Position numbers and translations under genes: made by a program. From a virus, in IMG/VR virus record IMGVR_UViG_3300044697_000029, positions 20,250 through 84,249 of that record: a stretch of 64,000 bases of DNA; one strand, 5' to 3'. Below are positions 20,231 to 38,098 of the stretch, piece by piece (within the stretch, counting starts at the first letter, position 1; each line of letters opens with the position of its first letter). Under the pieces are notes generated by a model. The model did no database searches. It saw nothing but the letters and a program-made list of their open reading frames with translations, and had not been told where the DNA came from.

Positions 20231-20236
20231 AGCGGG

Positions 20237-20764: not shown

Positions 20765-21202
20765 ATGGCGCGCAACCGCACGACATTTCCACCCGGCAAA
20801 GGAACAGGATGGGGCGGTCCGGCCAGAGGGCCGGGCGCCGGTCCAAAGTTCGAGAAGTTCATGGAAGGCAACCAGACCGAGCATCCCGCGGGCGACGATT
20901 ATCGCGAGCGTCGGCAGAAACGCCGCGAGTTGCGCGCCGCTGGCGCCGAAAGGCTTCAGCAGTTGAAGGACCATCTAGCCGATCTAGCCCTCAATGCCGA
21001 GCATGAAGCCACGCAGGTTAGCGCGACCGTCGCGTGGCTAAATCGGGAAGAGGGGATGCCGGCACAGACGAACAAGAATCTGAATGTCGATGTCATCAGC
21101 GGTCTCCCGCTCGACCAACAGCGAGCTATTGCGGCGGCTCTCGACGCTCTCCCCGACGACGCGGGCGACGATGCGGGAGGCGCTGCGCCGCAGCATCACT
21201 GA
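20765..21202 (+). CDS. Probable terminase small subunit
   Basis: Position before TerL, size, helical profile with LNREEGMPAQ. Confidence 0.55.
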   Translation: MARNRTTFPPGKGTGWGGPARGPGAGPKFEKFMEGNQTEHPAGDDYRERRQKRRELRAAGAERLQQLKDHLADLALNAEHEATQVSATVAWLNREEGMPAQTNKNLNVDVISGLPLDQQRAIAAALDALPDDAGDDAGGAAPQHH

Positions 21203-22395: not shown

Positions 22396-23141
22396 TACAA
22401 GCCGGATGGGCCGACTCACCGCACCTTTCGCCAGACGCCACGGAGGAGCTTGCGCGCTCGTATCCACCGAATGAACGGGACGCCCGCATGCGCGGCATCC
22501 CTTCGCTCGGGGCGGGCGCGATTTACCCCGTGCCGGAAAGCGAAGTCGTCGTGCAGCCGTTCAAAGTGCCGCACTATTGGCCTATCTGCTACGCCCTGGA
22601 TGTCGGCTGGAACCGCACTGCTGCGCTATGGGCCGCTCACGACACAGAGACCGACACAGCCTATCTCGTGAGCGAGCACTATCGAGCGCACGCCGAGCCG
22701 CCGATCCACGCTGAGGCGATCAAGGCGCGTGGCGCGTGGATACCTGGAGTAATCGACCCAGCGGCGCGCGGACGCAGCCAGAAGGACGGCGCCGCCCTGA
22801 TGACGACCTATCAGGAGCTTGGGCTAAGGCTAACCGCCGCGAACAATGCCGTCGAAGCGGGCATTTACGAGGTGTGGACGCGGTTTTCAACGGGACGCCT
22901 GAAGGTCTTCGCGACGCTGCAGAACTTCCTCGCGGAGTATCGTATCTACAGGCGCGATGAAAAAGGCCACATCGTGAAGGACAGCGACCACCTCATGGAC
23001 GATTGTCGCTACATCTGCATGAGCGGCCTTGATATCGCGGCATTCCGACCGCCAGAACTGGTGCGCGGTCTGGTCGGGAAGCCGAAACAGGAATGGTCCC
23101 CCCGCGCCGCACTCGATTCCGATGGATACGGATTGCGATGA
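22380..23141 (+). CDS. terL: Terminase large subunit, C-terminal nuclease part
   Basis: Frame open from 22359: ITRYVVQAGWADSPHL...ERDARMRGIPSLGAGAIYP, ALDVGW, IDPAARGR, DHLMD; GGGAGGT SD 5 nt before ATC 22380. Confidence 0.88.
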   Translation: MTRYVVQAGWADSPHLSPDATEELARSYPPNERDARMRGIPSLGAGAIYPVPESEVVVQPFKVPHYWPICYALDVGWNRTAALWAAHDTETDTAYLVSEHYRAHAEPPIHAEAIKARGAWIPGVIDPAARGRSQKDGAALMTTYQELGLRLTAANNAVEAGIYEVWTRFSTGRLKVFATLQNFLAEYRIYRRDEKGHIVKDSDHLMDDCRYICMSGLDIAAFRPPELVRGLVGKPKQEWSPRAALDSDGYGLR

Positions 23142-23523: not shown

Positions 23524-25365
23524 ATGCCTGAATCTGCTGCCCAACGCCGCTACGCCCGCGGCAACGGTCTCGATCCGGCACAACCGTTCTATTTCCAGTC
23601 ATCCCCAACGATGCTGGGGATGCAGCCGGCAAACGACAGCGCGCCGGCGCCCGTTGCTCCGTCGTGGCTGGGTTGGCCCGACCTCTACCGCCATCTGGAA
23701 GCGCGGCTCGCGGCCGAAAAGACGTGGCGGCTGTCATGGTGGCGGCTGTGGGGAGATATCGCCCGGTTCGAGCTTCCGAGGCGGTACCACGCGTTTTTGA
23801 CGGAGAACGACTACAACAGGGGCACGCGCCGCGACGGTGCCATCCTCGACAACACCGCGACGCAGGATGGTGAGACCTGTGCCGGCGGCATCATGACGGT
23901 CTGCACGGACCCCGATCGGGAGTGGATCAAGCTGGGCGCGCCGGCCGGCGTCGAGGTCGATCGCGACGGGCAGATGTTCTTCGATGACCTGACCGAACGG
24001 CTCCGCTTCGTGCAGGATGAGACCAACTTTTACGAGAGCCTGAACCAGTTCTATGAGGACCTGACGTTCTTCGGAACCGGCGTGGCGATCGACTATGACG
24101 ATGCCGACAACATCTTCGTCTGCCGGAATCCGTGTGCCGGCGAGTTCTGCCTCGCGAGCGGTGCCGGCAACGAGGACCAGTCGCTTTTCGTCGAGGAACG
24201 CCGGACGGTTGCGCAGATCGTTGAGATGTTCGGGCTGGACAACTGCCCGCTCGATATTCGCCAGCAGTTCGTCCAGAAAGGTGGCGCGCTGGAACAGGAG
24301 CGCATCGTCGGACATGCCATCGAGCCGAATTTCGCGCTGTCGGACGGTAACGGTGGGTCCGTTGGCAGGTTGCCGGGCCATTTCACGTGGCGCGAGGTGT
24401 ACTGGATCGTCGGCAAATCCGACACCGCGCCGCTGAGCATCGCGGGCTTTCAGGAGAAGCCCTTTGCTGCCTCGCAGTGGCATCGTGTGTCCAACGACCC
24501 CTACGGCCACGGGCCGGGATCGACGGTGCTTGGCGACACGATCGAACTGCAAATCCTCACGGCGCGGCAGGCCGAACTGGTGGAGAAGATCGGTCGGCCC
24601 CCGATGACGGCGCCGGTCTCGCTCAAGAACGAACCGCACTCGATCAAGCCCGACCAGATCACGTATTACGATGCGACCACTTCCGCGCCGCAGTTCAAGC
24701 CGATATTCGAGGTCGATGCGCGCGCCTTGGTTGGCATCAACGCCTCGATCGCCGCCGTGCAGGAGCGCATCCATCGCGGCATGCACGCCGACCTGTTTCG
24801 GATGATCCAGGAACTGTCACAACGCCCAGGCCAGAAGACGGCAACCGAGATCGACGCGCTTCGGGAAGAACGTCTGATGCAACTCGGGCCGGTGATCGGC
24901 CGCGTCTATCGCTACGGCATCCGCCCACGGATCAACCGGCAACTGGCCATCTTGCGGCGCCGCGGGCTGTGGCCGAAGATTCCGCAATCGATGCGCCGGC
25001 TGCCGTTGCAGATCGAGTTCATCTCGATGCTGACCCTGGCGCAGCGGGCCGGGGCGGTCGGCTCGATCGAACGGACGTTTGCCTTCGCCCAATCGCTGGC
25101 GCCCGATCCGCGGTTCGCTGAGAGCGGCGACGTGCTGGATGCCGACGAAGCCGTGCGAGAAGCGGCATCCTTGCGCGGCGCACCGTCCCGGATTATCAGG
25201 GCGGCGGCGGACGTGCGGAGGATCAGGGCGGCACGCCAGCAGGCCGTGTCGGCGCAGCAGCAGGCACAGACCGCGCAAGCAGCCGTGGCGGGAGCGCAGC
25301 AGTTGTCGCAGACCAGTCTCAATCCGGGGAACGCCCTGGGGGCCATGTTGCAGGGGGCACGGTGA
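23524..25365 (+). CDS. Portal (head-tail connector) protein
   Basis: 613 aa; ETNFY, FFGTG, PYGHGPG, KTATEI..LREERLMQLGPV and IEFISML motifs of T7/BPP-1-type portals. Confidence 0.93.
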   Translation: MPESAAQRRYARGNGLDPAQPFYFQSSPTMLGMQPANDSAPAPVAPSWLGWPDLYRHLEARLAAEKTWRLSWWRLWGDIARFELPRRYHAFLTENDYNRGTRRDGAILDNTATQDGETCAGGIMTVCTDPDREWIKLGAPAGVEVDRDGQMFFDDLTERLRFVQDETNFYESLNQFYEDLTFFGTGVAIDYDDADNIFVCRNPCAGEFCLASGAGNEDQSLFVEERRTVAQIVEMFGLDNCPLDIRQQFVQKGGALEQERIVGHAIEPNFALSDGNGGSVGRLPGHFTWREVYWIVGKSDTAPLSIAGFQEKPFAASQWHRVSNDPYGHGPGSTVLGDTIELQILTARQAELVEKIGRPPMTAPVSLKNEPHSIKPDQITYYDATTSAPQFKPIFEVDARALVGINASIAAVQERIHRGMHADLFRMIQELSQRPGQKTATEIDALREERLMQLGPVIGRVYRYGIRPRINRQLAILRRRGLWPKIPQSMRRLPLQIEFISMLTLAQRAGAVGSIERTFAFAQSLAPDPRFAESGDVLDADEAVREAASLRGAPSRIIRAAADVRRIRAARQQAVSAQQQAQTAQAAVAGAQQLSQTSLNPGNALGAMLQGAR

Positions 25366-25610
25366 TCAAATCCTATCCCGCCCATCCCCAGGTTCTGCAA
25401 CGCGACGCCGGGTCTGAGGCGATGCTGATGTGGCCCAGGAACGCCGAGATTGATCTCGCGCACGTGACGGGCGCCTATCCGGTGCCATACGTGCCGCCGA
25501 TGGTTGATCCGGTGTCTAACGTGGTCGCGGTGCAGCATGGCGGCCAGACGACGGTGATCCACGCCGATTTCGACCAGTTCCAGCGGGATTGGGAGGCAAG
25601 CCGGCGATGA
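25362..25610 (+). CDS. Hypothetical protein
   Basis: GTGA and ATGA coupling on both sides. Confidence 0.65.
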   Translation: MIKSYPAHPQVLQRDAGSEAMLMWPRNAEIDLAHVTGAYPVPYVPPMVDPVSNVVAVQHGGQTTVIHADFDQFQRDWEASRR

Positions 25611-26467
25611 GCCGCGAAAGCAAACAGGACGATCCGTGGGAGCGCCGTGCACTCTACGGGTGCGCCGCCGCTCTTGGTGGCAACGTGCCGCAAGCAATCC
25701 GGGATTTCGCAGGCCATCTTGACCAGGCCGCTGATGTGTTGGCCGATGCGCCCTGGATTGAGGGCAATGCTATGAGCGGCCACATCTTCGAACGATATGG
25801 GGGAGGCGGCGCCCGCAGTAGGCTCGGGGTGGGAAGGAGGCTCGCGCTCTCCGAAATACCGGAATGGATCGTTCGCATGAGCGATGACGCTGCGCAATGC
25901 AGGATGGCCGAGCTCGGGGCCGACCATGAAGCTCTGGGGCAAACTGTTGCCACGGACATTTTCTATGGTAGCCCGCAGGCGGACCCATGCAGTTGCATCG
26001 GGCTATCGGCCTTTTGCGAGTCACCCCAAGGAAACGTGGTTGACGGCGGTGGTGACGGCGGCTCGTCGATCTGGCTGCTCTCATGGCACCAGGAGGAACT
26101 TTATATCGCCTATCCAAAAGGCAGTATGGCTGGCCTCATGCGCCACGATCTCGGTCTTCAAGTGGGAGAGCGGGATGCAACGGGCGCCCGAGAGGTTGTT
26201 TACACAGAAGCGTCGGAAGTTTCGTTGGCGATAATTCCTCAGAGGGCACAAAGCGTAGTGCGTATCGCAAACCTAGCTGGTGTCGTGGGAGCGCGGCTGG
26301 ATCAGTTGATGAGAGCGGCTCTGGGCATGCTCGGCGATACAAAAGGAAGGCCGACATTTTACATGAACCGCACGGTAGCGGCGGCCCGTGGCAGTACAGA
26401 GCCGCTGGATGACTATCCGGTGCGTATCGCCGACGAACTGCGTTTTGATGAGGCGAGGGTTGCCTGA
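25607..26467 (+). CDS. Major-capsid-protein homologue 1 (internally deleted)
   Basis: Aligns by eye to 29654-30709: PWIEGN..GH, QTVATDIFYG, GL, NVVDGGG, SSIWLLSW, YPKGSMAG, VRIANL, FYMNRTV. Confidence 0.85.
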   Translation: MSRESKQDDPWERRALYGCAAALGGNVPQAIRDFAGHLDQAADVLADAPWIEGNAMSGHIFERYGGGGARSRLGVGRRLALSEIPEWIVRMSDDAAQCRMAELGADHEALGQTVATDIFYGSPQADPCSCIGLSAFCESPQGNVVDGGGDGGSSIWLLSWHQEELYIAYPKGSMAGLMRHDLGLQVGERDATGAREVVYTEASEVSLAIIPQRAQSVVRIANLAGVVGARLDQLMRAALGMLGDTKGRPTFYMNRTVAAARGSTEPLDDYPVRIADELRFDEARVA

Positions 26468-26898
26468 TGTCTCGCGAAACCGAGTTCCTCACGCGCCACA
26501 AGGAAGACCTGACGCAAGCCGCCGAGATGTGCCGCACACTTCAGCGCCAGGCCGTCGAGGTCTCGCCGCGGCATCGCACCTACCTGCGGCTTCTGCAGAC
26601 CTGCAAGCGGCTGGAAGGCACCTGCCGTCAGATGGCACATGAGCGCGGCGACGACTTCACGTGGTTGCAGCTTGGGCACCACTATCACGCGGTATCGCGG
26701 AAGGTGACGGCGCTGCGGCACGAGGGGAAATGGCTGCTGTTCGGGAAGTTGGCTGAGGTATTCGAGGCTGGGATGCCGCAGGTCGGGCGGCTGGCCACGA
26801 CTGCGACGGGGCTGACCAGCATGAGCACTTCGCCGCTGCTGATCCTGCCGCCCTACCTGCGTGGCGGCAAAATGGATGGACGGATTATCGTGCCATGA
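26467..26898 (+). CDS. Hypothetical protein
   Basis: Coupled on both sides; lies between the two MCP homologues. Confidence 0.7.
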   Translation: MSRETEFLTRHKEDLTQAAEMCRTLQRQAVEVSPRHRTYLRLLQTCKRLEGTCRQMAHERGDDFTWLQLGHHYHAVSRKVTALRHEGKWLLFGKLAEVFEAGMPQVGRLATTATGLTSMSTSPLLILPPYLRGGKMDGRIIVP

Positions 26899-27584
26899 CC
26901 GCACGATGGCTGAGTGACCCGGGTCGGCCCACTGAACTGGCGTGGTTCTTTGACGCGCCGTGGGAAGCGGCCAACCAGCGGCGCTGGCACAAGTACAATG
27001 TCCTTGCCACATCGTCGCCTATACGGATGATGTCAGGTGTGCTTGCGCTCAGCGCACCAGCAAAAGACGTGCTGCGGCAGGTAATCTACGGCAACCCCGT
27101 CGCTCAGAGCGTCGCGGGTCAGCCGCTGACCGAGATGATGGGCCTCGCGCCTATGTTTGCTAGCCGCGATCCGGGCGACGCCGCCAATGCGGTGAATGTC
27201 CTGGATGCTGGTGGCACGAGCAACCTATGTTCCGCGTGGTTGATCGGGTGGGGACCGCGCACGGTATTCATGGTCTCGCCAGATGGGGATCCACCTTCCC
27301 TCGAAGGCGAATGCGGCATTGCGGTTGCGGACTGGCGCTATGTGGTGCGAATCGCGAACATCGACGCTGTTTCGCCGAACTTCAATGCGCTGGCAATGAT
27401 GGCGATGGCGAGTATCCGTCTGCCGCGCCTGACCTGCGATGAGAACCTGCGGCCAATGTTCTATGTCACAAAGGACGTGGAAAATCGGCTGAAGGACGAT
27501 GTGTCGAAGCACGTTGAGCGGTTCAGTGGCGTCCCTATCCGTGTGATTGATGAACTGCGGAGCGACGAGGCGCGCATCGCTTGA
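26895..27584 (+). CDS. Major-capsid-protein homologue 2 (truncated)
   Basis: IYGN, MGL, AANAVNVLDAGG, SAWLIGWGPR, DWRYVVRIANID, RLP, RPMFY and FSGVPIR..D align to the MCP. Confidence 0.85.
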   Translation: MTARWLSDPGRPTELAWFFDAPWEAANQRRWHKYNVLATSSPIRMMSGVLALSAPAKDVLRQVIYGNPVAQSVAGQPLTEMMGLAPMFASRDPGDAANAVNVLDAGGTSNLCSAWLIGWGPRTVFMVSPDGDPPSLEGECGIAVADWRYVVRIANIDAVSPNFNALAMMAMASIRLPRLTCDENLRPMFYVTKDVENRLKDDVSKHVERFSGVPIRVIDELRSDEARIA

Positions 27585-27940
27585 GTGACTATCCCTACGC
27601 CTCCCGCGTCGCGGCTGCTGATGCCGCTATCGAAGACGTCCTCGATCCAGGTGCGGCTGCCGCTCGCGAGGAACAGAACCGCGAACACGAACGCGCCAGA
27701 CAGCAACGCCGAGCGTTCCTGATGCAGACCATGCAGCATCCCGAAGGCCGGAAGTGGCTCAAGGAGATGCTGGACCGGTTCCACACGTTCGAGGCCCGCA
27801 TGGCATCGGTGAACGGCATGGCGCCCGATCCGATGGGCACAATGCTTCTGGCCGGCGAGCAACGCTGCGGCTGGTGGATTTGGGAGCAGTTGGACGACGC
27901 CGATCCAGTCGTGGCTTCGAGACTGCGGAGGAATGCGTGA
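27581..27940 (+). CDS. Bbp19-like phage protein
   Basis: MQHPEGRKWLKEML...AGEQRCG motif; sits between portal and scaffold. Confidence 0.7.
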   Translation: MSDYPYASRVAAADAAIEDVLDPGAAAAREEQNREHERARQQRRAFLMQTMQHPEGRKWLKEMLDRFHTFEARMASVNGMAPDPMGTMLLAGEQRCGWWIWEQLDDADPVVASRLRRNA

Positions 27941-28173
27941 GAACGATCATCAAGGTGGACGAAGGCTGCCTCAACGGGCTGCTGACGACGCGGTTCATCG
28001 TGTTGGATCACGACTGCTGGTCGTTCGGCGAGCGTGTCAGTCAGGTCGATGCGGCGCTCGCCTCCATTCGGGACAGCGAAGACGCGGAGTGCCTGCGGGT
28101 GTTCGGCCAGGAGTTCTGCCCTGCTGTCGTGCCAGATGAATGTGAGACTCTGGTCGCGGCGAAGATCAGATAG
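27937..28173 (+). CDS. Small hypothetical protein
   Basis: GTGA overlap and GGAGG SD. Confidence 0.45.
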   Translation: MRTIIKVDEGCLNGLLTTRFIVLDHDCWSFGERVSQVDAALASIRDSEDAECLRVFGQEFCPAVVPDECETLVAAKIR

Positions 28174-28360
28174 GGCGCGCGGTCCCCGGCAACTCCATCG
28201 TAGGGAACGGCACTCCGGCTGGAGTGCAGAAATACCATCCTGCCGCTTCAACCGAGTAGCGGAACGCCGCATCCTCGGATTCCCGTTCGCGCCGATCCGC
28301 TTCGACCATCGCTTGACCGGTGTAGGTGCGCTCGCTCATGATTTGCTCTCCCTGCGGCAC
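28166..28360 (-). CDS. Small antisense hypothetical protein
   Basis: GGGAG SD before ATG near 28339. Confidence 0.4.
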   Translation of the reverse strand: MPQGEQIMSERTYTGQAMVEADRRERESEDAAFRYSVEAAGWYFCTPAGVPFPTMELPGTARPI

Positions 28361-28376
28361 TAGGGAAGTTCAAGCG

Positions 28377-28787
28377 TCATGCCACGCTCCGCGTTTGACG
28401 CGATGCGGGTCGGTAGGTCGTCATCTGTAACCGGCGTCGCTCATGATCGCCCCCTTCCCTCAGCGGCAACGCGGACCGTTCAGCGGGCGCTACGCCATCC
28501 ATGATGTTGCGCGGCAGCACAGTCCGCACCGACACGACCGCTCCGTTGCTGTTTCGGTCGTCTAACGAGATGTGCGGTGCGTAAACCGCCAGCGGGGCGG
28601 TCTGACGTTCTGTCGCGACTGCGTTCCGCGGCACGAATTGCATCTCATGGAATGCCCCATCGTCACCACGCTCGAAGACGCCTTCGCTTGTGGCGACGAA
28701 CAGCCGGTCCTTGAACACGACCATTGAGATGATCGGCACTTTGCTCGTCGCGACCAGTTCCATGTTGCGGGGCGGCTCTGCGTCCAT
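28377..28787 (-). CDS. Antisense hypothetical protein
   Basis: AAGGTG SD; IISMVVFKDRLFVATSEGVF looks like one beta-propeller blade. Confidence 0.45.
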   Translation of the reverse strand: MDAEPPRNMELVATSKVPIISMVVFKDRLFVATSEGVFERGDDGAFHEMQFVPRNAVATERQTAPLAVYAPHISLDDRNSNGAVVSVRTVLPRNIMDGVAPAERSALPLREGGDHERRRLQMTTYRPASRQTRSVA

Positions 28788-28806
28788 GTCCACACCTTGA
28801 GGTTTC

Positions 28807-29637
28807 ATGTCCGACAGTTCTACCGCAGCAGAAACGCCCGCGCCAGCGTCGGAACCGGCTCCCGCAGCCGCTGCACCGGCGCCCGAGCCTGTCGCTGCGC
28901 CGGCCACCGAGGTAACGCCCGCAGCCACCCCAGAGCCGGTCGCCGAACCGGCAGCCCCATCCCCCGAGCCGGAGCCGGCCGCAGCCGCAGGAGAGCCTGC
29001 GCCCGCCACGGTCCAGGATCCGGCCGCAGCCGAACTGGAGAAGGCGCCGGAGGCTGCCGAACCGGTCGCAGAGCCGCCGAAGCCGGAACCGCCGACCTAC
29101 ACCGATTTCAAGTTCCCGGACGGTGTGAAGGTCGCCCCCGAAGCTATGACCGCCGCAACCAAGGTGTTCGGCGAGTTCGGCCTAACCCAGGAGCAGGCGC
29201 AAAGGCTGATCGACATTCATGCCGAACAGCAGCAAGCGGCGGTTAAGCAGTTCACCACTGCGGCCACGGACTACTGGAACGCCGAGTCCAGGAAATGGGT
29301 TGCCGAGGTCGAGAAGACATTCGGCAACCAGCTCAACACCAACATAGAGCGTGCCCGCGCGGTTTGGTCCGACGTGCTGCCCAAGCAAGCCGATCGTGAC
29401 CGTCTGTTCGGCGCGCTGAACGACACCAAGATCGGCGACCACCCCATGCTGGCCCGCGCGCTGGCGGAGGTCGGCCGCCGCTTCGAGCAAATCTACCAGT
29501 TGACCGGAACCAATAGCTGGGATGCCGCGATGAGACGGCTGCGTGAACCGGCCGCGCCGCCACCTGCCCAACCTGCCCGTGCGCCTGGTGCCGCCGGGCG
29601 ACCTGCCGACCGCCGTTACAGCGGCACCCGAGCATAG
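28807..29637 (+). CDS. Capsid scaffolding protein
   Basis: Pro/Ala/Glu-rich N-terminus, YTDFKFPDG, GLTQEQAQRL, GDHP; directly before the MCP. Confidence 0.85.
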   Translation: MSDSSTAAETPAPASEPAPAAAAPAPEPVAAPATEVTPAATPEPVAEPAAPSPEPEPAAAAGEPAPATVQDPAAAELEKAPEAAEPVAEPPKPEPPTYTDFKFPDGVKVAPEAMTAATKVFGEFGLTQEQAQRLIDIHAEQQQAAVKQFTTAATDYWNAESRKWVAEVEKTFGNQLNTNIERARAVWSDVLPKQADRDRLFGALNDTKIGDHPMLARALAEVGRRFEQIYQLTGTNSWDAAMRRLREPAAPPPAQPARAPGAAGRPADRRYSGTRA

Positions 29638-29653
29638 AGAAGGAGCTTGAACG

Positions 29654-30709
29654 ATGGCCACCGGCCAATACCTGACGCTTGTCGATCTCGCGCGGCGCAC
29701 CGACCCTGACGGTGAGGCGGCGGACATTGCCGAACTGCTTTCCCAGGCCAACGAGATTTACGATGATCTCGTCTGGAAAGAAGGCAACACCAACACCGGG
29801 CACGTCTATACGATGCGGACCTCCATCCCGAAGGGCTGGTGGCGCTTCATCGGCCAGGGTGTGCCGGGCAGCAAGTCCACCACGGCGCAGGGTCGCACCA
29901 ACTGCGGCGACCTGGAAATGAACTCGACCATTGATCTCAAGCTGGTCGAAATGGCGCCGGATCAAAACCAGTTCCGCTACGATGAAGACAACGCCATCCT
30001 GGAAGGCGCCAGCCAGACTGTGGCTGGCCAGTTCTTCTATGGTAACGGCCAGACCAACCCAGCATCGTTCACCGGCCTCTCGAACTACTACAACACGCTG
30101 GAAACCTCGACGGCCGCGAACGCAGTCAACGTGTTCGACGGCGGCGGACGGTCCACTAACAATTCGTCGATCTGGCTGATTGGTTGGTCGCCGCGCTCGA
30201 TCTATGGCGTCTTCCCGCGCGGCATGAAAGCCGGCGTTGAGCTGCAGCCGCTCGATGAAGTTGTGCTGGCCTACGACAGCCTGGGCAATCCGTACCGCGC
30301 CAAGATCACATGGTTCCGGCAGATGGCTGGGCTGTGCGTCGAAGACTGGCGCTGGGGCGTCCGCATCGCCAACCTGGACGTGACCAACGCAGCGGCTGGC
30401 GGTCTGGCTGGCCCGAATGCGTATGACATCTTCGTCGGGCTGTCCAAGGCGGTGAAGCGCTTGCCGAAGATGGCGCGCGGGCAAAGCGGCATCACCGAGA
30501 CCGACGCTCGCAATGAGCGCGGGATGACGGTACGGCCGGCCATCTACTTCAACCGCACTGTCGGCGGCTTTGCTGATGTGCAAGCGATACGTGACCGCAA
30601 CGTGTTGCTCGGCCCGAGGGACTACGCTGGCGAGCCGGTCACGTCGTTCCGCGGCATTCCGATGCGCACGCAAGACCAGATTCTGTCCACCGAAACGCAG
30701 GTCACCTGA
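29654..30709 (+). CDS. Major capsid protein (BPP-1 Bbp17-like, HK97 fold)
   Basis: LTLVDLARR, IAELLSQANEI, FYGN, SIWLIGW, DWRWGVRIANLD, FRGIP; strong AAGGAG SD and biased codons. Confidence 0.95.
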   Translation: MATGQYLTLVDLARRTDPDGEAADIAELLSQANEIYDDLVWKEGNTNTGHVYTMRTSIPKGWWRFIGQGVPGSKSTTAQGRTNCGDLEMNSTIDLKLVEMAPDQNQFRYDEDNAILEGASQTVAGQFFYGNGQTNPASFTGLSNYYNTLETSTAANAVNVFDGGGRSTNNSSIWLIGWSPRSIYGVFPRGMKAGVELQPLDEVVLAYDSLGNPYRAKITWFRQMAGLCVEDWRWGVRIANLDVTNAAAGGLAGPNAYDIFVGLSKAVKRLPKMARGQSGITETDARNERGMTVRPAIYFNRTVGGFADVQAIRDRNVLLGPRDYAGEPVTSFRGIPMRTQDQILSTETQVT

Positions 30710-30848
30710 TTCCGACAACGACTGCTCGGCTCATCCCGTCCACGAAAAGAAGGTGTGGCCGAAGTCCCGTTGGATCGAGCCCCTAACCCCTGCGCCCATA
30801 ACAACCGGGTGCATATCGCTTTTCTTCCCGACCTGAAAGGGTAATGCC

Positions 30849-31382
30849 GTGGCGATCAATGACGCACAGCTCATCTTTGACAGCAACGTCTCCCTCGCCA
30901 TCGCGGCGCCGGGGCAGCCGTCCTCGGAGACCATCGACCTGATGGGAGTCGGGGTCGGGCAGGCGCCCCCGAACTACTTTGGCGTGCAGGATGCGGTGTT
31001 CGGGGAAGACCCCGGCATCGGCGACGGGGCAAGCCCGCCGGTTCTGCAAGTCATCGTCGGCACGGCGTTCGTTGCCGTGGCAGGCGCCACGCTCCGGGTG
31101 CAGTTCCAGGAATCGGTGGACAGCGGCGCCCCTGGGTACACGCCTGCCGCCTGGAAGACCGTGCTGCAGACCGATGATCTGCCGGCGTCGGTTCTGACGG
31201 CGGGCGCCAAGATCGCCGAGATGGCCATCCCGCCGCGGTATCCCGGCGCTGCGTTCCCCCGCTATCTGCGGCTGAACTACCTTTTGAATGTCGGTGGTTC
31301 GAGCTTCAGCGCGGGCACGATCGCGATCGCGAACATCGTCACGGGCCGCGACGACACCCCTGCGTATCCCGCCGGTTACTGA
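30849..31382 (+). CDS. Bbp16-like capsid cement protein
   Basis: IND.QLIF, SETIDL and RYLRLNY motifs; follows the MCP. Confidence 0.85.
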   Translation: MAINDAQLIFDSNVSLAIAAPGQPSSETIDLMGVGVGQAPPNYFGVQDAVFGEDPGIGDGASPPVLQVIVGTAFVAVAGATLRVQFQESVDSGAPGYTPAAWKTVLQTDDLPASVLTAGAKIAEMAIPPRYPGAAFPRYLRLNYLLNVGGSSFSAGTIAIANIVTGRDDTPAYPAGY

Positions 31383-31528
31383 TCCCGCTTACGGGTGGGA
31401 GACACCTGAGAGCCGCACGCAGGCGGCTTCGAGTCCGGGCCTCGCTATCCGTCGCTGCCCGTAGGGCTTGGAGGCGGCGGTGTGCGGAAACCCAGTCTCC
31501 CGGCAACCGTACGCGGGAAAGGCCCGGA
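31383..31528 (+). ncRNA. Candidate structured RNA element with possible pseudoknot
   Basis: Nested complementary segments fill the intergenic region; no known family recognised. Confidence 0.4.
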
Positions 31529-31555
31529 ACTGCGCAATATCACAAGGATAACGTA

Positions 31556-32527
31556 ATGGCACGTAACCCACGCCTCACGCTGAGCGGTCCGGCCGGCAGC
31601 GAGCAGGACAATGATGGTTGGACTCCGAGCGACGAAGAGCTTGGCGTCGGCGAAGAGACCGAAGCAGAGCGTAAGGCGGAAGAGGCTGCGCGCATCACAG
31701 CGGCTATGGCTGATCCAGTCATCGCCACGGCCATTGATCAGTTGGTGCAACAACGCGTCACCGAACTCGCAGCCTCACCCCAGACGGCGCCGACCGGCGT
31801 TGATTTCATCGCTGCCATACGCGTGCTGGCGCAGGAAATGGCCACTGCCATCAATCGCAGTACCGCGGCGACGGTGGAGCAAATCCCCGGCCACGTGAAG
31901 CCGATCCCGGCCGAAGAGGTCGAGAAGCGCGCGGCGGCGTGGGTCGAATTGCAGAGCCAGTTGATCGAGGTGTCACGACGCTACGCGGCGGCGATCGAGC
32001 GGAAAAACCAATACGAGGCCGAGCGGGAAACCCCGATCTACTGGCTGGGCGAGGATTTCTATGGTCCGGGTGAAGTCGGCAACGAGGTGTATGTGCGGGG
32101 CGAAACCATTCGCTGGTTTGGCGTTCCTGGCATCTACATGGAGCCGCGCAACGATATCGCCAACCGGCTTTGCGAGTTGGCCTGGACCTATCTCGGCAAC
32201 GAAGGCGCCCCGACGCCAGAGCAACTGGCGGACAAGGCACAACAGATGATGAAGCCGAGCGCACCAGGCTCGCCGCTGCCGGAACTGGCGTCGCTCTTGT
32301 CTGCGCGCGGCCAGCGGCGCCCGATGGCGTCCCGTGTTTCGGAGATGGGCATCGCCGAACGCCAACCGGATGGGATTGTGGGTACGGTGGTGAAGGTGAC
32401 CCGTGGCGGCTTCGGCCACGGCATCGTCACGGACGGTCCAGGGCTGGCGCAGCACAGCATCGGGCCACGTACAGGACCGCATCCGGTTCGCGGGGCGGCG
32501 CTTGCTGACGCTGGCGCGGCGCTCTGA
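31556..32527 (+). CDS. Hypothetical phage protein
   Basis: AAGGA SD; 323-aa ORF in the structural operon. Confidence 0.8.
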   Translation: MARNPRLTLSGPAGSEQDNDGWTPSDEELGVGEETEAERKAEEAARITAAMADPVIATAIDQLVQQRVTELAASPQTAPTGVDFIAAIRVLAQEMATAINRSTAATVEQIPGHVKPIPAEEVEKRAAAWVELQSQLIEVSRRYAAAIERKNQYEAERETPIYWLGEDFYGPGEVGNEVYVRGETIRWFGVPGIYMEPRNDIANRLCELAWTYLGNEGAPTPEQLADKAQQMMKPSAPGSPLPELASLLSARGQRRPMASRVSEMGIAERQPDGIVGTVVKVTRGGFGHGIVTDGPGLAQHSIGPRTGPHPVRGAALADAGAAL

Positions 32528-32530
32528 CGC

Positions 32531-32965
32531 ATGGGCGTTCCAGTCGCCAACATCCAGACGCCGGCCGCGAACGATCTCGCAAACGCCGTTGTCCAATCAG
32601 GGCTGAATGGCGCCAATCCAGCGTTTGCTGGAACAGGTGTATCCTCAGTCTTCTCCGCGTGGGGATCATTCAACGCCCTGCTGTGGGCGAGCGGCGGCCC
32701 GAACGGCAACTGGAACGCGACGATCCAGCTTGAACGGTCGTTTGACGGCGGCACGACGTGGCTGGTGTGTGGCGTCGGAGGAGCTGGCCAGCAGGCGATC
32801 TACCAAAGTTCCGGCACCGGCCAGGACATCTCGTTCGTCGTGAGTGAGCCGGAATCCGGCGTTTTGTATCGCTGGCATTGCACCGCCTACTCGTCCGGCA
32901 CGATCAACTATCGCTTCTCAACCACTAGCCCGGCGCCGTTGGCGTGGGGCATCGCTCCCCGATGA
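32531..32965 (+). CDS. Probable beta-sandwich structural protein
   Basis: ATIQLERSFDGGTTW and EPESGVLYR..CTAYSSGT motifs. Confidence 0.75.
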   Translation: MGVPVANIQTPAANDLANAVVQSGLNGANPAFAGTGVSSVFSAWGSFNALLWASGGPNGNWNATIQLERSFDGGTTWLVCGVGGAGQQAIYQSSGTGQDISFVVSEPESGVLYRWHCTAYSSGTINYRFSTTSPAPLAWGIAPR

Positions 32966-32975
32966 GGCACAGCAC

Positions 32976-34403
32976 ATGAAGTTCCGCACCAAACTGCTCG
33001 GCGCTATTGGGCTGCTCGCTGTCATTGGCGTTGCCGGCGCGCACAGCCAAGGACTCCAGTACTACACCACTCTAAGCGGCAGCGAAGGCATCGCCGATCA
33101 GCTCAATCCGACCGGCGCCAGCTTCACCTCGGGTCTGGTGCATGCAACGTCGCAGGGCGTCAACGCTCAGACGGGGACCAGCTACACGGTCCTCGGCACG
33201 ACTGGCATTCCCCAATCTGGGGCCGCGCCGACCGGCGACATGGGCAAACTGGTCACGTTCAGCAACACAGGCGCAGTGGCGGTCTCGCTGCCACAGGCTG
33301 GTACGGCTGGATTTGAGGCGGGGAAATGGCTTGACGCTGAGAATCTGAACAGCGGCGCCGTCACGATCACGCCGACGACTTCGACCATCAACGGCGCTTC
33401 CACGCTGGTTCTCGATCAGAACAGGGGCGTCCGCATCTATTCGGACGGCACGAACTGGCAGATCATGGCTGGTGGTGGCGGGCTGCTCGGCACGCCGCTC
33501 ACGGTGCCTGAAGGAGGTACCGGCGCGGCGACGTTCACCGCACATGGTGTCCTGATCGGAGAAGGCGCTACCCCGATTGTGGCAGCGAGCGTTGGCGCAA
33601 CTGGCACCATACTGGCCGGCACGTCGGGCGCCGATCCGGCATTCACGGCGACCCCATCCGGCCTGACCTCGATCGAAGCGACCACGCTCAATGCCGGCCT
33701 CGCCACCGGCACTGCCGGCACAGTCGCGGTGTTTCCCGGCACGACGACGACCGGTAAGACGACTTTCACTGCGACGGCCAACAGCGGCAACACAACCACC
33801 AACATCAACACCGCCGCCCAGGCTGGCGCGCGCACCTACACCGTGCCGGATCAGGGCGGCAACGCCACCTTCCAGATGACGGGCGGCACCGTCAGTTCAA
33901 CGACCGGCATGACGGTGACTCCGCTGCCGCTGGTCAACATGAAGACCGTCGCCGGCCTTCAGATGACCGGCTCGGCGTCAAGCACGAACTGGGGCCTCGT
34001 CTATACTCCCGCCACCGGGAACTACCTGACCGGCACAGCGACCTCATCCGGCTCGACCTCCAACGTTGCTTCCTACGACATCGTGTTGCCGGCGAACTAT
34101 ATCGCCGGAACCAACATAACGCTGAAGGTTGCCTGCTATTACACGAACTCGTCCTCGACGGCCTCGGTCCATACAATGGCTGCGGCGGCCTATCTCAACG
34201 ATCCGGTTCTCGGCACGCAGGGATCGACGCTCATCGCTACATCGGCACAGACCTGTCCGATCACGACCGCAACCGCGCAGACCTTCACGATCACTGGCAC
34301 GTCGCTGGTCCCGGGATCCTACCTGACGCTCACCTTCTCGGCCGCGGTGACGAACGGCGGCGGCGCATCAACCGAGTTCCTGACTGCGGCGAACATCAAC
34401 TGA
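32976..34403 (+). CDS. Fibre/decoration-like protein with N-terminal signal peptide
   Basis: MKFRTKLLGAIGLLAVIGVAGAHS-Q; Thr/Gly-rich; fibre-like motifs SDGTNW and VPEGGTGA. Confidence 0.8.
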   Translation: MKFRTKLLGAIGLLAVIGVAGAHSQGLQYYTTLSGSEGIADQLNPTGASFTSGLVHATSQGVNAQTGTSYTVLGTTGIPQSGAAPTGDMGKLVTFSNTGAVAVSLPQAGTAGFEAGKWLDAENLNSGAVTITPTTSTINGASTLVLDQNRGVRIYSDGTNWQIMAGGGGLLGTPLTVPEGGTGAATFTAHGVLIGEGATPIVAASVGATGTILAGTSGADPAFTATPSGLTSIEATTLNAGLATGTAGTVAVFPGTTTTGKTTFTATANSGNTTTNINTAAQAGARTYTVPDQGGNATFQMTGGTVSSTTGMTVTPLPLVNMKTVAGLQMTGSASSTNWGLVYTPATGNYLTGTATSSGSTSNVASYDIVLPANYIAGTNITLKVACYYTNSSSTASVHTMAAAAYLNDPVLGTQGSTLIATSAQTCPITTATAQTFTITGTSLVPGSYLTLTFSAAVTNGGGASTEFLTAANIN

Positions 34404-34426
34404 GCCATCACGGAGAACCCCATCCC

Positions 34427-35704
34427 ATGAAGAACCTCTCGCTCGGCGCGGCTTGGCTGATCCTGGCCGGGGGCGTTGCCTTCGGGCAACTCCCGACGCC
34501 TTCTCAGGTGCAGAATATCGGGCCGGCTGACCTGTTCCAGGACATTCCGAACGGCGTCCCGCAGCCGGCCAGCCAGTACGCCAACGCGCTTCTGCTCGGC
34601 AACTACGCCGCGACGCAGCCGGGCAACAATGATGAGAACGACGTGGTCGGTGGCGACTTCGGACAGAACTTGTTCCAGGACGGAACGTCAGTCGGCACGA
34701 TCACGACGACGGCCACCTATGTGGCTGATCAGTTTTTCGCATTCTCCGGCACCAGCACGACGATCGGCGGCGCGCAGGAAACCGGCGCAGCCGATATCCC
34801 ACCCGGCTATACAGCATCCCTGCGGATCACTCGTACCGGCTCCGGTGTCATTCAGGCCTGTGTCGGCACGATCATTCCGTCGGCCAACGTTACCCGCTAC
34901 CAAGGTCAGACGCTGGAGGTGGACGCCCACGCCCTCGCTGGCGCCGGGTTTTCCGCGGCATCGTCCAATCTGACGTTTGTCCAGGTGCAGGGCACTGGCA
35001 CAAACGACAGCGCGGCGAACTTCGCCAAGACGGTCAACGGCGCGCTCAGCGGCACAGCGTGGGCCGGCGCGGTGGTCAATTCTGTCAACGTGCCGATCAG
35101 CACAAGCTTTGGCCGCTACAGCGTTGCCTTCCCGGTGGCGTCAACCACAACCGAGATGGGCGCGGCCTGGTGTTGGACGCCGGTCGGCGCTTCCCCGAGC
35201 AACGATTATTTCGAGTTCACTGGCGCGCAGATGACGCCGAACTCGGCCTTGGCCACGGTCGCAGGCACAACGGGTGGTGCACTCTCACCCAATGACCGCC
35301 GCGCAAAATCCTTTTTGCGGCGTCCGATCGCGGTAGAAACCGCGCTGGAGTTGTCATTTTACTGGCGTCAGAACGAGCCTGCATCCGGCGCTGGTGTTGC
35401 AGGCGTTTACGGCACCTGCCAAGGCACCTCGACCAACACGGTGGCGAATTGCTTCATGCAGTTCCCTGTGGCCATGTTCAAAGTGCCGACGCTTTCCTAC
35501 ACCGCCGGCACAATCGCGATGACCGCGACCTCGACTGCGGCAGCGGAAGCAGTGAGCGGCCTTGTCATCCCGACCAACGGCGCGACGCTTTATGGTGCAA
35601 GCCTCACTGCCACATCGTCATCGGTCGCAGAAGGCGGGTTTGGATACCTGGAGTCGGGCAACTCGACCGGCGGCGGCAAGATCGCGTTCTCGGCGCGGTT
35701 CTGA
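34427..35704 (+). CDS. Fibre/carbohydrate-binding-like protein with N-terminal signal peptide
   Basis: MKNLSLGAAWLILAGGVAFG-Q; N.VVGGDF...Q, RRP..VE....FYW and FPVAMFKVPT motifs typical of phage fibre tips. Confidence 0.8.
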   Translation: MKNLSLGAAWLILAGGVAFGQLPTPSQVQNIGPADLFQDIPNGVPQPASQYANALLLGNYAATQPGNNDENDVVGGDFGQNLFQDGTSVGTITTTATYVADQFFAFSGTSTTIGGAQETGAADIPPGYTASLRITRTGSGVIQACVGTIIPSANVTRYQGQTLEVDAHALAGAGFSAASSNLTFVQVQGTGTNDSAANFAKTVNGALSGTAWAGAVVNSVNVPISTSFGRYSVAFPVASTTTEMGAAWCWTPVGASPSNDYFEFTGAQMTPNSALATVAGTTGGALSPNDRRAKSFLRRPIAVETALELSFYWRQNEPASGAGVAGVYGTCQGTSTNTVANCFMQFPVAMFKVPTLSYTAGTIAMTATSTAAAEAVSGLVIPTNGATLYGASLTATSSSVAEGGFGYLESGNSTGGGKIAFSARF

Positions 35705-35853
35705 TGGACCACGTTCCGGTCGGCGCTCTCCCCGAGGCAAGGAGCGCCGACACACCACCCGTCATGGCGGCCGACGACGTGAAGACGATCAAGCGCCGGA
35801 TGGACGAAATCCGCGCTGAGGAAGAGGCGTGGCGCGCAAAGCCCGCAAGCTGA
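35704..35853 (+). CDS. Small hypothetical protein
   Basis: TGATG coupling. Confidence 0.45.
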   Translation: MDHVPVGALPEARSADTPPVMAADDVKTIKRRMDEIRAEEEAWRAKPAS

Positions 35854-36053
35854 CGGCCGCACGGCGCCCGACGTTCTGCGGAACGTGGGAGTGCGAGTGC
35901 GCGGTATGCGTCGAACACCAGCAGTTGCGCGTGACCGCGCAATTCAATCCGGCGATGCCTCTGCGCCTGAGCGCGATGACGTTTCTCGGCGCGATGGACC
36001 GCATCCACGAAGGAGCCTACGGCGGCGTTGCGATCGAGCAGTTGTTCGACTGA
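35829..36053 (+). CDS. Small Cys-rich hypothetical protein
   Basis: CGTWECECAVC; stop overlaps the next ATG. Confidence 0.45.
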   Translation: MARKARKLTAARRPTFCGTWECECAVCVEHQQLRVTAQFNPAMPLRLSAMTFLGAMDRIHEGAYGGVAIEQLFD

Positions 36054-36400
36054 TGCGCCCCATTCCCACTTCGGTGCGCGTTGGCTACCGGACGTACACG
36101 ATCGAGGATTGGCCGACCAAGCACGCCACTTCGGCCAACCGCTACGGCGAGGTTGCACACGGACCACGGGTCATTCGTGTCGATACAACACACGGCGCCT
36201 TGCAGGCCGCAGAAACTCTTCTGCATGAAATCATGCACTGCATCTGCGTTATGTGGTGTCGTGACGATGATGCGGCCGAGGAGAAAACGGTAAGCATCAT
36301 GTCAACTGGGCTGGCCACTGTGTGGCATGATAACCCAGACGTGATGGCATGGATCACTGAGGGCATTGCGGAGGGTCGCGCAAATGCCTGCATTTCTTGA
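36053..36400 (+). CDS. HExxH zinc-metallopeptidase-like protein
   Basis: ETLLHEIMH...EE motif. Confidence 0.7.
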   Translation: MRPIPTSVRVGYRTYTIEDWPTKHATSANRYGEVAHGPRVIRVDTTHGALQAAETLLHEIMHCICVMWCRDDDAAEEKTVSIMSTGLATVWHDNPDVMAWITEGIAEGRANACIS

Positions 36401-36596
36401 AAATAAACTGGAGCGTGAGGCTGCGGCGAAGGGTCTCAAGGGCAAAGCGGCGGCGCGGTACACGTTCGGCACGCTCAATAACATTGGCGCAATGAAGGGG
36501 TCTGCCGAGACCGCCAAGGGCGCCGAGATGCAGCGCAAGCACGATGAGAAAGTCGAGAGTGCCGCAGACCGCCGGTATCGTCGGCGGAAGACATGA
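36384..36596 (+). CDS. Small basic protein with C-terminal SAADRRY
   Basis: GGAGG SD; Lys/Arg-rich. Confidence 0.75.
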   Translation: MPAFLENKLEREAAAKGLKGKAAARYTFGTLNNIGAMKGSAETAKGAEMQRKHDEKVESAADRRYRRRKT

Positions 36597-36672
36597 TGGC
36601 GCTCCGGGTCTGCCCTTAATGTGGAGTTCCCACTTGGGATAACCGGCCCGCCGCCGCAGCAGAGAGAATACG

Positions 36673-36960
36673 ATGCCATCCCTGACAATTCAAGACGCAG
36701 CACGGAGGCCAACGATGGCGCGGGCGCACAGGTATGTTCCCAAGAAGGATTTCCATCCAGGGGGGCAGAAGGGAAAGCTCCACCGCGAGCTTGGTGTTCC
36801 AGTCGATCAGCCGATTGGCGCCGCACGCATTGAGGCGGCGACGCATTCCAAGAACCCCGAAATTCGCCGTGACGCGATCCGCGCCCAGACGATGGCAGGA
36901 TGGCATCACGGCAGCAGCAAGCCCCGAGCCGCCGATCGTCGCTACGCCGGCCACAAGTGA
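36673..36960 (+). CDS. Small basic protein with C-terminal RAADRRY
   Basis: KGKLHRELGVP...I motif; alternative start 36715 with GGAGG SD. Confidence 0.75.
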   Translation: MPSLTIQDAARRPTMARAHRYVPKKDFHPGGQKGKLHRELGVPVDQPIGAARIEAATHSKNPEIRRDAIRAQTMAGWHHGSSKPRAADRRYAGHK

Positions 36961-36972
36961 AGGATAGAACCG

Positions 36973-37566
36973 ATGCCCGATGGAATGATGAGCGCGGCCC
37001 AGCGGCGTTATGCCAAGGAAAGGCCCGGCGAGAAGCGTGAGGAAAAGCCGGGCCAGGAAGGCGGTCGCGAGAAGCCGACCGAACCGCGCCGGGAAGAGCG
37101 CCGCGAGGAACGCCGGGGCGAGGATCGCCATGAGCGTCGCGAGGCCCGCGGTCGCGGTCGCGAGTCCGAAGGCATGAAGGCGATGCTGGAACGGCACAAC
37201 GACGAGCACGCCGAACGCGAGAAGAGGCAGGAAGGCGAGCGCCGCGACATGCACATGCGGCATCGCGAAGCCCACCGCGACATGGCGAAGCGCCACACCG
37301 AAGAACGGATGGGCATCAGGTCGCACGCCGAGATGATGGCTGTTCATCGCCGGCACGAACACGAGAAACGCGCCCTCCATCATACCCATCACGAAGAAAT
37401 GGGGCTGCTCCATCATCGGCATGAAAACGAGACCGCAATGATGCACGCCAGACACGAAGCGGAGATGGCTGGCGCCCCGGATGCTGCGGCTGCGGTCGAA
37501 GGCGCGACGCCGGCCGGTCCTGGTGGCGCAGCGGCTCCCGAGGGTCCGCAGGGCGCCGGGGTATAG
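36973..37566 (+). CDS. His/Glu/Arg-rich protein with 11-residue repeats and N-terminal SAAQRRY
   Basis: AAGGA SD; RHxxE recurring every 11 aa. Confidence 0.8.
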   Translation: MPDGMMSAAQRRYAKERPGEKREEKPGQEGGREKPTEPRREERREERRGEDRHERREARGRGRESEGMKAMLERHNDEHAEREKRQEGERRDMHMRHREAHRDMAKRHTEERMGIRSHAEMMAVHRRHEHEKRALHHTHHEEMGLLHHRHENETAMMHARHEAEMAGAPDAAAAVEGATPAGPGGAAAPEGPQGAGV

Positions 37567-37570
37567 GGCC

Positions 37571-38098
37571 GTGGCGCAATTCCGGGAGTTCCGCAGTCTC
37601 GCCCTCTCGGACGATGAACTGCATGACATGGCGCAGGCCCGCGCCGGCATCACGACTGACGAAGACTTGCCGGAATACCCGCCCGGTCTTCGTTTTACGA
37701 TCCGCGAGCAGTCGTTCGAGGATTTCGGGATCGACGGCGCTCGGCCTGGCGCAACCGTGGAGTTCGCCGCCTTCGCCCGTGTAAGTAGTGTCAGCCTCCG
37801 CACGGACGGCTGCCGCGTCGAGCTTGAGCTGATGATGGTTTCGCTCGATGACGGAGAGTTCGTGGAGTTGCCGGACCAGGATCGGCCGACAATCTGCCTT
37901 GATGAGAATGACCACGAGCGGTTGGACCTGGAGGAAGGATCTGCCGAGCGCGGGCACATCCTGCACCTGATGGGCGCAGCGGAAGTGGTCTCGGTGGACG
38001 ACACCTCTTATGGCGGCAAGTCGCTGGTGCTTCAGATCACAGACGGGATGGTGGTTGAAGACGAAGACGAGGAGGCGCATGACCAGTCCTCGCAGTAG
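37571..38098 (+). CDS. Capsid staple-like protein, tandem duplicated domain
   Basis: YPPGLRFTI...G..V...A.V.SVS...VELEL repeated as PTICLD...G...HL...AEV.SV...LVLQITD. Confidence 0.6.
   Translation: MAQFREFRSLALSDDELHDMAQARAGITTDEDLPEYPPGLRFTIREQSFEDFGIDGARPGATVEFAAFARVSSVSLRTDGCRVELELMMVSLDDGEFVELPDQDRPTICLDENDHERLDLEEGSAERGHILHLMGAAEVVSVDDTSYGGKSLVLQITDGMVVEDEDEEAHDQSSQ

Follow-up and report, generated by a model that had tools for sequence, protein, structure and literature searches.

Encapsulins load cargo such as EncFtn and ferritin-like proteins through a short peptide at a protein terminus, which lies on a flexible linker and marks otherwise unrelated proteins for enclosure in an HK97-fold shell. 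Comparable elements occur in phage assembly. The scaffolding protein of 80alpha and SaPI1 CpmB share a C-terminal capsid-binding element (PMC5644958), so that CpmB seems to occupy the same site in the procapsid and the satellite hijacks one helper-phage site to change capsid size. The internal proteins IPI-III of T4 carry a capsid targeting sequence (PMC3012670, PMC9026906), a short peptide that directs small, basic proteins into the prohead, and this sequence appears to be N-terminal only, to act through the scaffold core and to be removed by the prohead protease. In P22, the extreme C-terminus of the scaffolding protein is likely a helix-turn-helix that pairs electrostatically with the capsid N-arm, and in the nested scaffold/protease genes of herpesviruses and lambda-type phages, a shared C-terminus probably loads the protease into the procapsid. 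In epsilon15, gp10 (PF21628, PDB 3j40 chains H-N) was found in virions by proteomics, but its assignment to the outer staple density is now judged probably wrong (PMC9207676), leaving a virion protein of unresolved location.

Here we analysed a 64-kb stretch of viral DNA (64,000 nucleotides of IMG/VR record IMGVR_UViG_3300044697_000029; hereafter the window), in which the initial annotation had noted a shared A-[D/Q]-R-R-Y peptide on the scaffold, the portal and three small proteins and proposed it as a candidate capsid-targeting signal. The observation was confirmed. A[DQ]RRY occurs exactly five times in the six-frame translation of the window and nowhere else, whereas 200 first-order Markov shuffles gave a mean of 0.25 and a maximum of 2. 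All five instances are on the plus strand and lie within 13 residues of a terminus of a gene (Table 1). Since the 15-nt cores share only 10-12 of 15 bases and differ mainly at synonymous positions, the motif is not a DNA repeat.

Table 1. Coordinates of the tagged genes and of neighbouring features in the window.
Feature	Coordinates	Strand	Size	Tag or site	Tag or site coordinates	Position in protein
Portal protein	23524-25365	+	613 aa	SAAQRRY	23533-23553	residues 4-10
epsilon15 gp5-like small protein (g119)	27581-27940	+
Scaffold-like protein	28807-29637	+	276 aa	PADRRY	29602-29619	Tyr at residue 271
Major capsid protein (inferred receptor)	29654-30709	+		Asp24 (candidate contact)	29723-29725	start of N-arm helix
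Bbp16-like cement protein, not tagged	30849-31382	+
HExxH ORF	35885-36400
Small basic ORF	36366-36596	+	76 aa	SAADRRY	36558-36578	C-terminal
Small basic protein (Family A)	36673-36960	+	95 aa	RAADRRY	36925-36945	C-terminal
His/Arg/Glu-rich protein (Family B)	36973-37566	+	197 aa	SAAQRRY	36991-37011	residues 7-13
epsilon15 gp10/BPP-1 Bbp20-like acidic protein, not tagged in the window	37481-38098	+

The genes belong to an epsilon15/BPP-1-like podovirus. The portal matches PF12236 (E=7e-87), the capsid protein matches PF20911 GP7 (E=1e-94) and the PDB entries 3j4u, 8cjz and 3j40, and the cement protein matches PF21190 Bbp16 (E=2.5e-6). The scaffold-like protein matches phrog_458 (E=1e-22) and lies directly upstream of the capsid gene. 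The synteny of this head module holds across the related loci L001-L027 (loci are numbered with the prefix L) and the reference phages. Unlike an encapsulin, whose shell works without such genes, this shell belongs to a true tailed phage, with the portal, a split TerL (PF03237/PF17289), nozzle and fibre genes in the same operon. The three small tagged proteins have no recognisable fold family. The nearest Atlas clusters of the Family A protein, which probably starts at residue 15, are viral hypothetical proteins. The 76-aa ORF, which probably starts at the internal Met, has no Pfam or PHROG hit and no homologue in about 90 related loci, and its status as a gene therefore rests on its position, GC3 and the tag itself. 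It sits in the same "cargo cassette" slot as tagged small genes of relatives. The gp10-like protein hits PF21628 only below the cut-off (E=1.6e-4, 22.3 bits against 27 bits) and 3j40_N at E=0.04, and is linked to the family through a tblastn chain and homologues that pass, such as L064:12929-13327 (E=2.5e-15, 57 bits).

The initial annotation had suggested asking whether the motif co-varies between scaffold, portal and cargo in relatives, and this test came out positive. In about 90 related loci and nine isolated phages, the C-terminal tail of the scaffold keeps one invariant Tyr, which is one of only five invariant columns in an alignment of 25 scaffold sequences. The flanking residues change between lineages (RRY, KRY, LRDIYDHPRS, RMYDHPSS, RLY, AFYP), and the client proteins of each genome carry their own scaffold's version. 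The scaffold of L084 has RMYDHPSS and its cargo RMYDHPSS and RMYDHASS, while L025 has MYTHPTS and L094 has EKRYG in both. Likewise, BPP-1 has RLY, epsilon15 AFYP, phiV10 AAE[VT]LYG and BcepC6B RAAK[LF]Y in both. All 34 loci with Family A homologues show a Tyr tag at the end of this protein that matches the scaffold tail, and in an 18-sequence alignment of Family B the only invariant residues are M1, the tag Tyr13, E89 and H97.

Permutation of the pairings supports this covariation. The mean BLOSUM score between the scaffold and Family A was 20.7 against 8.2 (p of 1e-4 or lower), and the relation also holds within each tag class (p=1e-4 and 2e-4). The scaffold and the gp10-like proteins gave 15.0 against 8.5 (p=1.5e-4). 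The class of the -1 residue in C-terminal tags follows the scaffold (odds ratio 8.8, p=2e-4), while the control with internal Tyr gave an odds ratio of 1.0. However, the permutations are not corrected for shared ancestry, and on the capsid tree the -1 class changes only about twice. The portal tag was not shown to be a general feature. An N-terminal AAx[RK]RY extension is present in the window and in L001, L003, L004, L006, L012 and L019, but is absent from the clade with a hydrophobic residue-Tyr tag (the hydrophobic-Tyr clade) and from epsilon15, phiV10 and BPP-1, and is confined to the window's own clade.

Intriguingly, the tag is modular. It sits within 20 residues of either terminus, flanked by disordered linkers. 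Ordinary Dps homologues end near residue 143, whereas the phage copies (PF00210; L026, E=1e-19; L070, E=6e-17) add about 16 residues carrying the tag, RMRSLY in L026 and DRRY in L070, each matching the phage's type. EncFtn-like proteins (PF22277) carry it at the N-terminus in L017 (E=1e-8) and at the C-terminus in L116 (E=2e-10). These relatives strengthen the cargo idea of the initial annotation. The gp10-like protein ends with the same peptide as that phage's scaffold in epsilon15, phiV10, BPP-1, BcepC6B, CP2 and Jess A, and carries the scaffold's tag in many relatives, but it has lost the tag in most of the window's clade, so the tag is dispensable for that protein there.

In the AF2 model of the scaffold-like protein, residues 1-95 are disordered, residues 111-246 form an all-helical body (pLDDT above 90), and a Pro-rich linker is followed by a short helix of residues 266-272 (pLDDT 63-68), which is the tag. 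This predicted seven-residue element is not a helix-turn-helix, and the resemblance to the P22 scaffold is functional only. The AF2 model of the Family B protein has the tag as a short low-confidence helix, followed by a disordered Lys/Glu-rich linker, one long helix of residues 62-165 (pLDDT above 95) and a disordered Ala/Gly/Pro tail.

We consider, with moderate confidence, that A[DQ]RRY is this phage's version of a terminal short linear motif found across the epsilon15/BPP-1-like lineage, and that the scaffold tail has been copied onto clients, which bind the same partner and are drawn into the assembling procapsid. In the window, these clients would be the portal, with 12 flexible N-terminal tethers, and three small proteins that are probably internal head proteins, although none of the three has been shown to be in a virion. 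In relatives, they include gp10/Bbp20-like proteins, Dps and EncFtn-like ferritins, and Cys-rich proteins. The most likely partner is the lumenal face of the major capsid protein, probably its N-arm helix, where tag arginines would pair with Asp24, but no physical or modelled binding was obtained. Position 24 is D/E in 29 of 29 [RK]RY-type loci and V/L/I in the hydrophobic-Tyr clade, and is acidic again in the R-M-Y tag lineages. This lead is weak, and the receptor is not identified; 38 capsid columns separate the two main tag clades, and the independent-contrast test, with only two changes, is not significant (p=0.5). Moreover, the N-terminal peptide of the capsid protein points outward to the cement protein in mature BPP-1 (PMC3863775), and an N-arm site would therefore have to be specific to the procapsid. 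Since epsilon15 and phiV10 infect closely related enterobacteria yet have different, internally consistent tags, a phage-encoded partner fits better than a conserved host factor.

It is less likely, though possible, that the receptor is the helical body of the scaffold or the gp5-like protein g119, and that clients co-assemble with a scaffold core, as T4 internal proteins probably do, rather than bind the shell. The function of g119 is unknown (phrog_528, weak), but it is conserved and encoded directly upstream of the scaffold gene in every relative. Its column 83 follows the Arg content of the tag as well as capsid position 24 does, including in the L083/84/88 and L104 lineages. Columns comparable to capsid position 24, acidic only in RRY-type loci, exist in the portal (5), g119 (2), g143 (1) and g323 (1). 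On the other hand, the scaffold body shows no such column, its tail does not dock confidently on the body in the AF2 monomer, and the scaffold C-termini of P22, 80alpha and herpesviruses seem to bind the capsid protein.

A protease site, degron or chaperone recognition site seems very unlikely, as does a generic basic nucleic-acid-binding or condensate-forming patch of Arg/Tyr "stickers" without a specific receptor. Scaffolds, portals and internal proteins are the usual substrates of prohead proteases, and phrog_458 and several database records label the scaffold homologue "protease". However, no protease domain, protease fold or PDB match was found for the scaffold-like protein, no protease family was found in the module, and the only HExxH ORF nearby has no homologue in any related locus. 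The BPP-1 capsid proteins are not cleaved (PMC3863775), and cutting 3-5 residues from a C-terminus would do little. The differing tags of epsilon15 and phiV10 also argue against a conserved host protease. The window's version of the tag is Arg-rich and sits on basic or highly charged, largely disordered proteins, as expected for a generic patch, but many lineages have non-basic versions (AFYP, AAE[VT]LYG, SALYP, LWYG) while the Tyr stays invariant, and the tag also occurs on strongly acidic gp10-like proteins. The covariation extends to residues after the Tyr (YDHP[RS]S, MYTHPTS), which implies a shaped binding site.

Terminal peptides that load proteins into a shell are thus already known, and we found no description of the present tag in the searchable literature. 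Here, the phage itself tags several of its own proteins, including the portal, in separate, non-nested genes and at either terminus, with a peptide shared with its own scaffold tail. The Tyr-centred, often basic core appears unlike the hydrophobic Gly/Ser/Leu-rich consensus of encapsulin peptides. Tentatively, tailed phages of this lineage may run an encapsulin-style cargo-loading system, in which any protein that carries the scaffold's Tyr-tail at either end is packaged into the head, the portal is anchored by the same peptide, and the cargo set is a fast-evolving cassette that includes Dps and EncFtn-type ferritins. This would be a sequence-level link between phage scaffolds and encapsulin cargo-loading peptides, and would also place epsilon15 gp10 inside the capsid.

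The stretch lies in the late operon of a podovirus-like element on an 84-kb contig of 63% G+C. The operon begins with a NusG-like gene, followed by a split large terminase, a T7-type portal gene (PF12236), two truncated capsid paralogues, a gp5-like small gene (hereafter g119), a scaffold-like gene, a GP7-type major capsid gene (PF20911), a Bbp16-type cement gene, fibre-like genes, a cluster of small genes, and genes for adaptor, nozzle and large internal proteins. The nearest isolated phages are the epsilon15/phiV10 and BPP-1 groups, at 33-40% capsid identity. The two halves of the terminase are separated by about 600 bp, while they are only about 120 bp apart in the related locus L001 (related loci are hereafter given L numbers). 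The truncated capsid paralogues are located between the portal and the scaffold, and tblastn with them hit only the capsid gene in the related loci L001-L027. An endonuclease VII-type gene sits inside the structural operon just after the gp10-like gene and looks like a homing-type insertion, and similar genes appear at other positions in L009 and L022.

A[DQ]RRY occurs five times in the six-frame translation of the 64 kb, only at the five places noted in the initial annotation, whereas shuffled sequence gives a mean of 0.25 and a maximum of 2. All five are on the coding strand and within 13 residues of a terminus, namely the portal N-terminus, the scaffold C-terminus, the C-termini of a 76-aa and a 95-aa protein, and the N-terminus of a 197-aa His/Arg/Glu-rich protein. 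Since the 15-nt cores share only 10-12 bases and differ at synonymous sites, a DNA repeat is rejected as the origin of the motif, and selection acts on the peptide. A scan of the remaining 20 kb of the contig revealed no further convincing tags, and the large internal or ejected proteins of the window carry none. Among them, a 1171-aa protein with an ADP-ribosyltransferase domain of the "polyvalent protein" type, which matches just above the cut-off, is probably an ejected internal protein.

To examine conservation, we collected 27 and then about 90 related loci from viral and genome collections, together with the head modules of nine isolated phages. In nearly every locus, the ORF ending just upstream of the capsid gene has the same build, in which a helical body is followed by a Pro-rich linker of about 20 residues and a Tyr-centred peptide 3-12 residues from the stop. 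In a 25-sequence alignment of whole scaffolds, only five columns are invariant, and one of them is this Tyr. The 95-aa protein (Family A) has homologues in 34 loci, and all 34 end with a Tyr tag. In the family of the 197-aa protein, the invariant residues are the initiator Met, the tag Tyr, one Glu and one His. The AF2 model of the 197-aa protein consists of the tag, a disordered linker, one long helix, which is not a ferritin fold, and a disordered tail. The scaffold is modelled as a disordered N-terminus, a confident all-helical body, a linker and a short helix over the tag. No protease fold was found in the scaffold, and neither a Foldseek search of its model against the PDB (E of 0.001 or lower) nor phmmer against PDB sequences gave a match. 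Pfam and PHROGs likewise gave no family for the three small proteins of the window, even at E=5.

The residues around the Tyr are not constant across the lineage, but within a genome they agree between the scaffold and the other tagged proteins, hereafter clients.

Scaffold tails and the matching termini of client proteins in the window, related loci and isolated phages
Genome	Scaffold tail	Clients
Window	DRRY	DRRY or QRRY, four times
L084	GSRMYDHPSS	KSRMYDHPSS and ESRMYDHASS
L025	REAMYTHPTS	RETMYTHPTS
L094	AEKRYG	EEKRYG and AEKRYP
L114	GLRGLYK	GLRGMYK
BPP-1	RRLYAAS (Bbp18)	QRLYGAS (Bbp20)
epsilon15	SAFYP (gp6)	DAFYP (gp10)
phiV10	SAAEVLYG	SAAETLYG
BcepC6B	RAAKLY	RAAKFY

Shuffling which cargo goes with which scaffold lowers the mean similarity from 20.7 to 8.2 for Family A (p of 1e-4 or lower, n=22), and the effect remains inside each of the two main tag classes (p=1e-4 and 2e-4). 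For the gp10-like proteins, the corresponding values are 15.0 against 8.5 (p=1.5e-4, n=11). A contingency test that included N-terminal windows defined by any internal start codon was too noisy (odds ratio 1.5, p=0.03). When the test was confined to C-terminal windows, the -1 residue class of the tags followed the scaffold (odds ratio 8.8, p=2e-4), while internal tyrosines showed no association. These tests do not correct for shared ancestry, and on a quick capsid tree the coarse switch between basic and hydrophobic -1 residues happened only about twice. It is the finer agreements, namely the residues after the Tyr and the pairs in the isolated phages, that suggest repeated co-change.

The tag works as an add-on. 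Ordinary Dps proteins end at about residue 143, whereas the Dps genes in two of these phages carry about 16 extra residues that end in the tag, each in the version of its own phage (RMRSLY in L026 and DRRY in L070). Two phages encode EncFtn-like proteins above the gathering score, with the tag at the N-terminus in L017 and at the C-terminus in L116. Other tagged proteins are Cys-rich or belong to small basic families with no Pfam match. In L105, a 192-aa Cys-rich protein of unknown fold ends with the tail LRKKLYDNPRS, matching its scaffold's RVLYDNPRS, and in L108 two N-terminally tagged proteins of unknown fold are encoded upstream of the portal. Otherwise, these tagged proteins sit together in a variable cassette between the fibre genes and the gp10-like gene, and the three small genes of the window lie in the same slot. 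We found no description of the shared tag, or of phage-packaged EncFtn or Dps, among the open-access papers and preprints searched.

Coordinates of features in the window and in related loci
Locus	Position	Feature	Match
Window	20063-20761	NusG-like protein at the head of the late operon	PF02357, E=1e-12
Window	21084-21890 and 22488-23141	Large terminase split into an ATPase ORF and a nuclease ORF	PF03237 and PF17289
Window	25589-26467 and 26895-27584	Two truncated paralogues of the major capsid protein, 292 and 229 aa (capsid protein, 351 aa)	PF20911, E=3e-32 and E=4e-26
Window	35885-36400	ORF with an HExxH motif, immediately upstream of the tagged small genes	phrog_1233, no Pfam match
Window	37481-38098	gp10-like protein	
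Window	38110-38877	Endonuclease VII-type gene	PF02945, E=5e-23
Window	51727-55242	1171-aa protein with an ADP-ribosyltransferase domain, no Tyr tag	PF18760, E=2e-7
L026	14987-15466	Tagged Dps	PF00210
L070	4254-4730	Tagged Dps	PF00210
L017	14434-14664	Tagged EncFtn-like protein	PF22277
L116	9385-9585	Tagged EncFtn-like protein	PF22277
L108	2733-3131 and 3128-3415	Two N-terminally tagged proteins	
L105	15782-16360	Tagged Cys-rich protein	
L030 (epsilon15)	7705-8040 and 5224-5940	gp10 and the scaffold gp6, both ending with AFYP	

The gp10-like protein of the window appears to be a homologue of epsilon15 gp10. A 2022 re-analysis states that gp10 was identified by proteomics of infectious particles, that its assignment to the external staple density is probably wrong, and that a 130-aa protein fits that density instead (PMC9207676). 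We infer that this protein is gp8, since gp8 is the 130-aa epsilon15 protein and its record cites the BPP-1 cement protein Bbp16, which is indeed the cement protein in BPP-1 (PMC3863775). Thus, gp10 is in the virion at an unknown place and ends with its scaffold's tail peptide, which suggests that gp10 is an internal protein. This is the only experimental hint that tagged proteins are packaged, and it is indirect.

The initial annotation had proposed that the phage reuses its scaffold's coat-binding motif to recruit the portal and load internal cargo. This interpretation is supported by the comparative test suggested there, covariation of the motif between scaffold, portal and cargo in relatives, and it extends to a whole phage lineage and to ferritin-like cargo, although capsid binding and encapsidation themselves are inferred. 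We propose that the scaffold tail is a short linear motif that binds a site exposed in the procapsid, and that proteins carrying the same peptide bind the same site and are enclosed. Twelve tagged portal N-termini on flexible linkers could tie the portal to the surrounding capsid subunits despite the symmetry mismatch, but the portal tag exists only in the window's clade.

As the inferred receptor, we favour the capsid protein, in part because scaffold C-termini seem to bind it in the systems studied (P22, 80alpha and herpesviruses). Capsid position 24, at the start of the N-arm helix, also gives a lead, because it is Asp/Glu in all 29 RRY-type loci, Val/Leu/Ile in the hydrophobic-Tyr clade, and acidic again in two lineages whose tag is R-M-Y. 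However, the controls for this lead are mixed. Thirty-eight capsid columns separate the clades, and columns that are acidic only in RRY-type loci do not single out the capsid protein, since the portal, g119 and two other proteins, designated g143 and g323, also have them. Column 83 of g119 behaves in the same way as capsid position 24, and a phylogenetically independent test of position 24 against tag class found only 2 changes, both in the expected direction (p=0.5), and is underpowered. In mature BPP-1, the capsid N-terminal peptide points outward to the cement protein. If the N-arm is the site, its movement at expansion could be the release step, although this is speculation.

A receptor other than the capsid protein, either the scaffold body or g119, is the serious alternative, which would change the geometry but not the function. 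On the other hand, a protease site or degron is unlikely, because no conserved protease was found, the BPP-1 capsid proteins are uncleaved, and tags differ between phages of near-identical hosts. The HExxH ORF was considered as a possible maturation protease and rejected, because it has no homologue in any related locus and is thus an accessory gene. A generic basic patch is also unlikely, since many lineages have non-basic tags, the tag occurs on acidic proteins, and the flanks covary position by position.

The proposed system works like encapsulin cargo loading and like the T4 capsid targeting sequence, and it resembles the 80alpha SP/CpmB case and the nested scaffold/protease genes in sharing the scaffold's C-terminus. 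However, portal and terminase are present, so it is not an encapsulin. Tags occur at both ends and no protease was found, so it is not T4-type, and the predicted structure contains no helix-turn-helix, so it is not P22-type. A 2026 paper argues from structures that scaffolds and encapsulin cargo are interchangeable "internal proteins" of HK97 shells (PMC13669383), and the loci found here would be sequence-level examples of that idea and would make it directly testable.

If this reading is true, a tag of 7-10 residues that works at either terminus, with natural orthogonal variants (RRY type against hydrophobic-Tyr type), would be a useful tool for loading proteins into phage-derived capsids. 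It would also offer an explanation for epsilon15 gp10, and it would show tailed phages packaging ferritin-like proteins by a terminal tag, which is the defining behaviour of encapsulins. For the epsilon15, phiV10 and BPP-1 relatives, a widespread group of podoviruses, it would give a simple, portable rule for how they choose what goes inside the head, including how the portal is tied to a symmetry-mismatched vertex.
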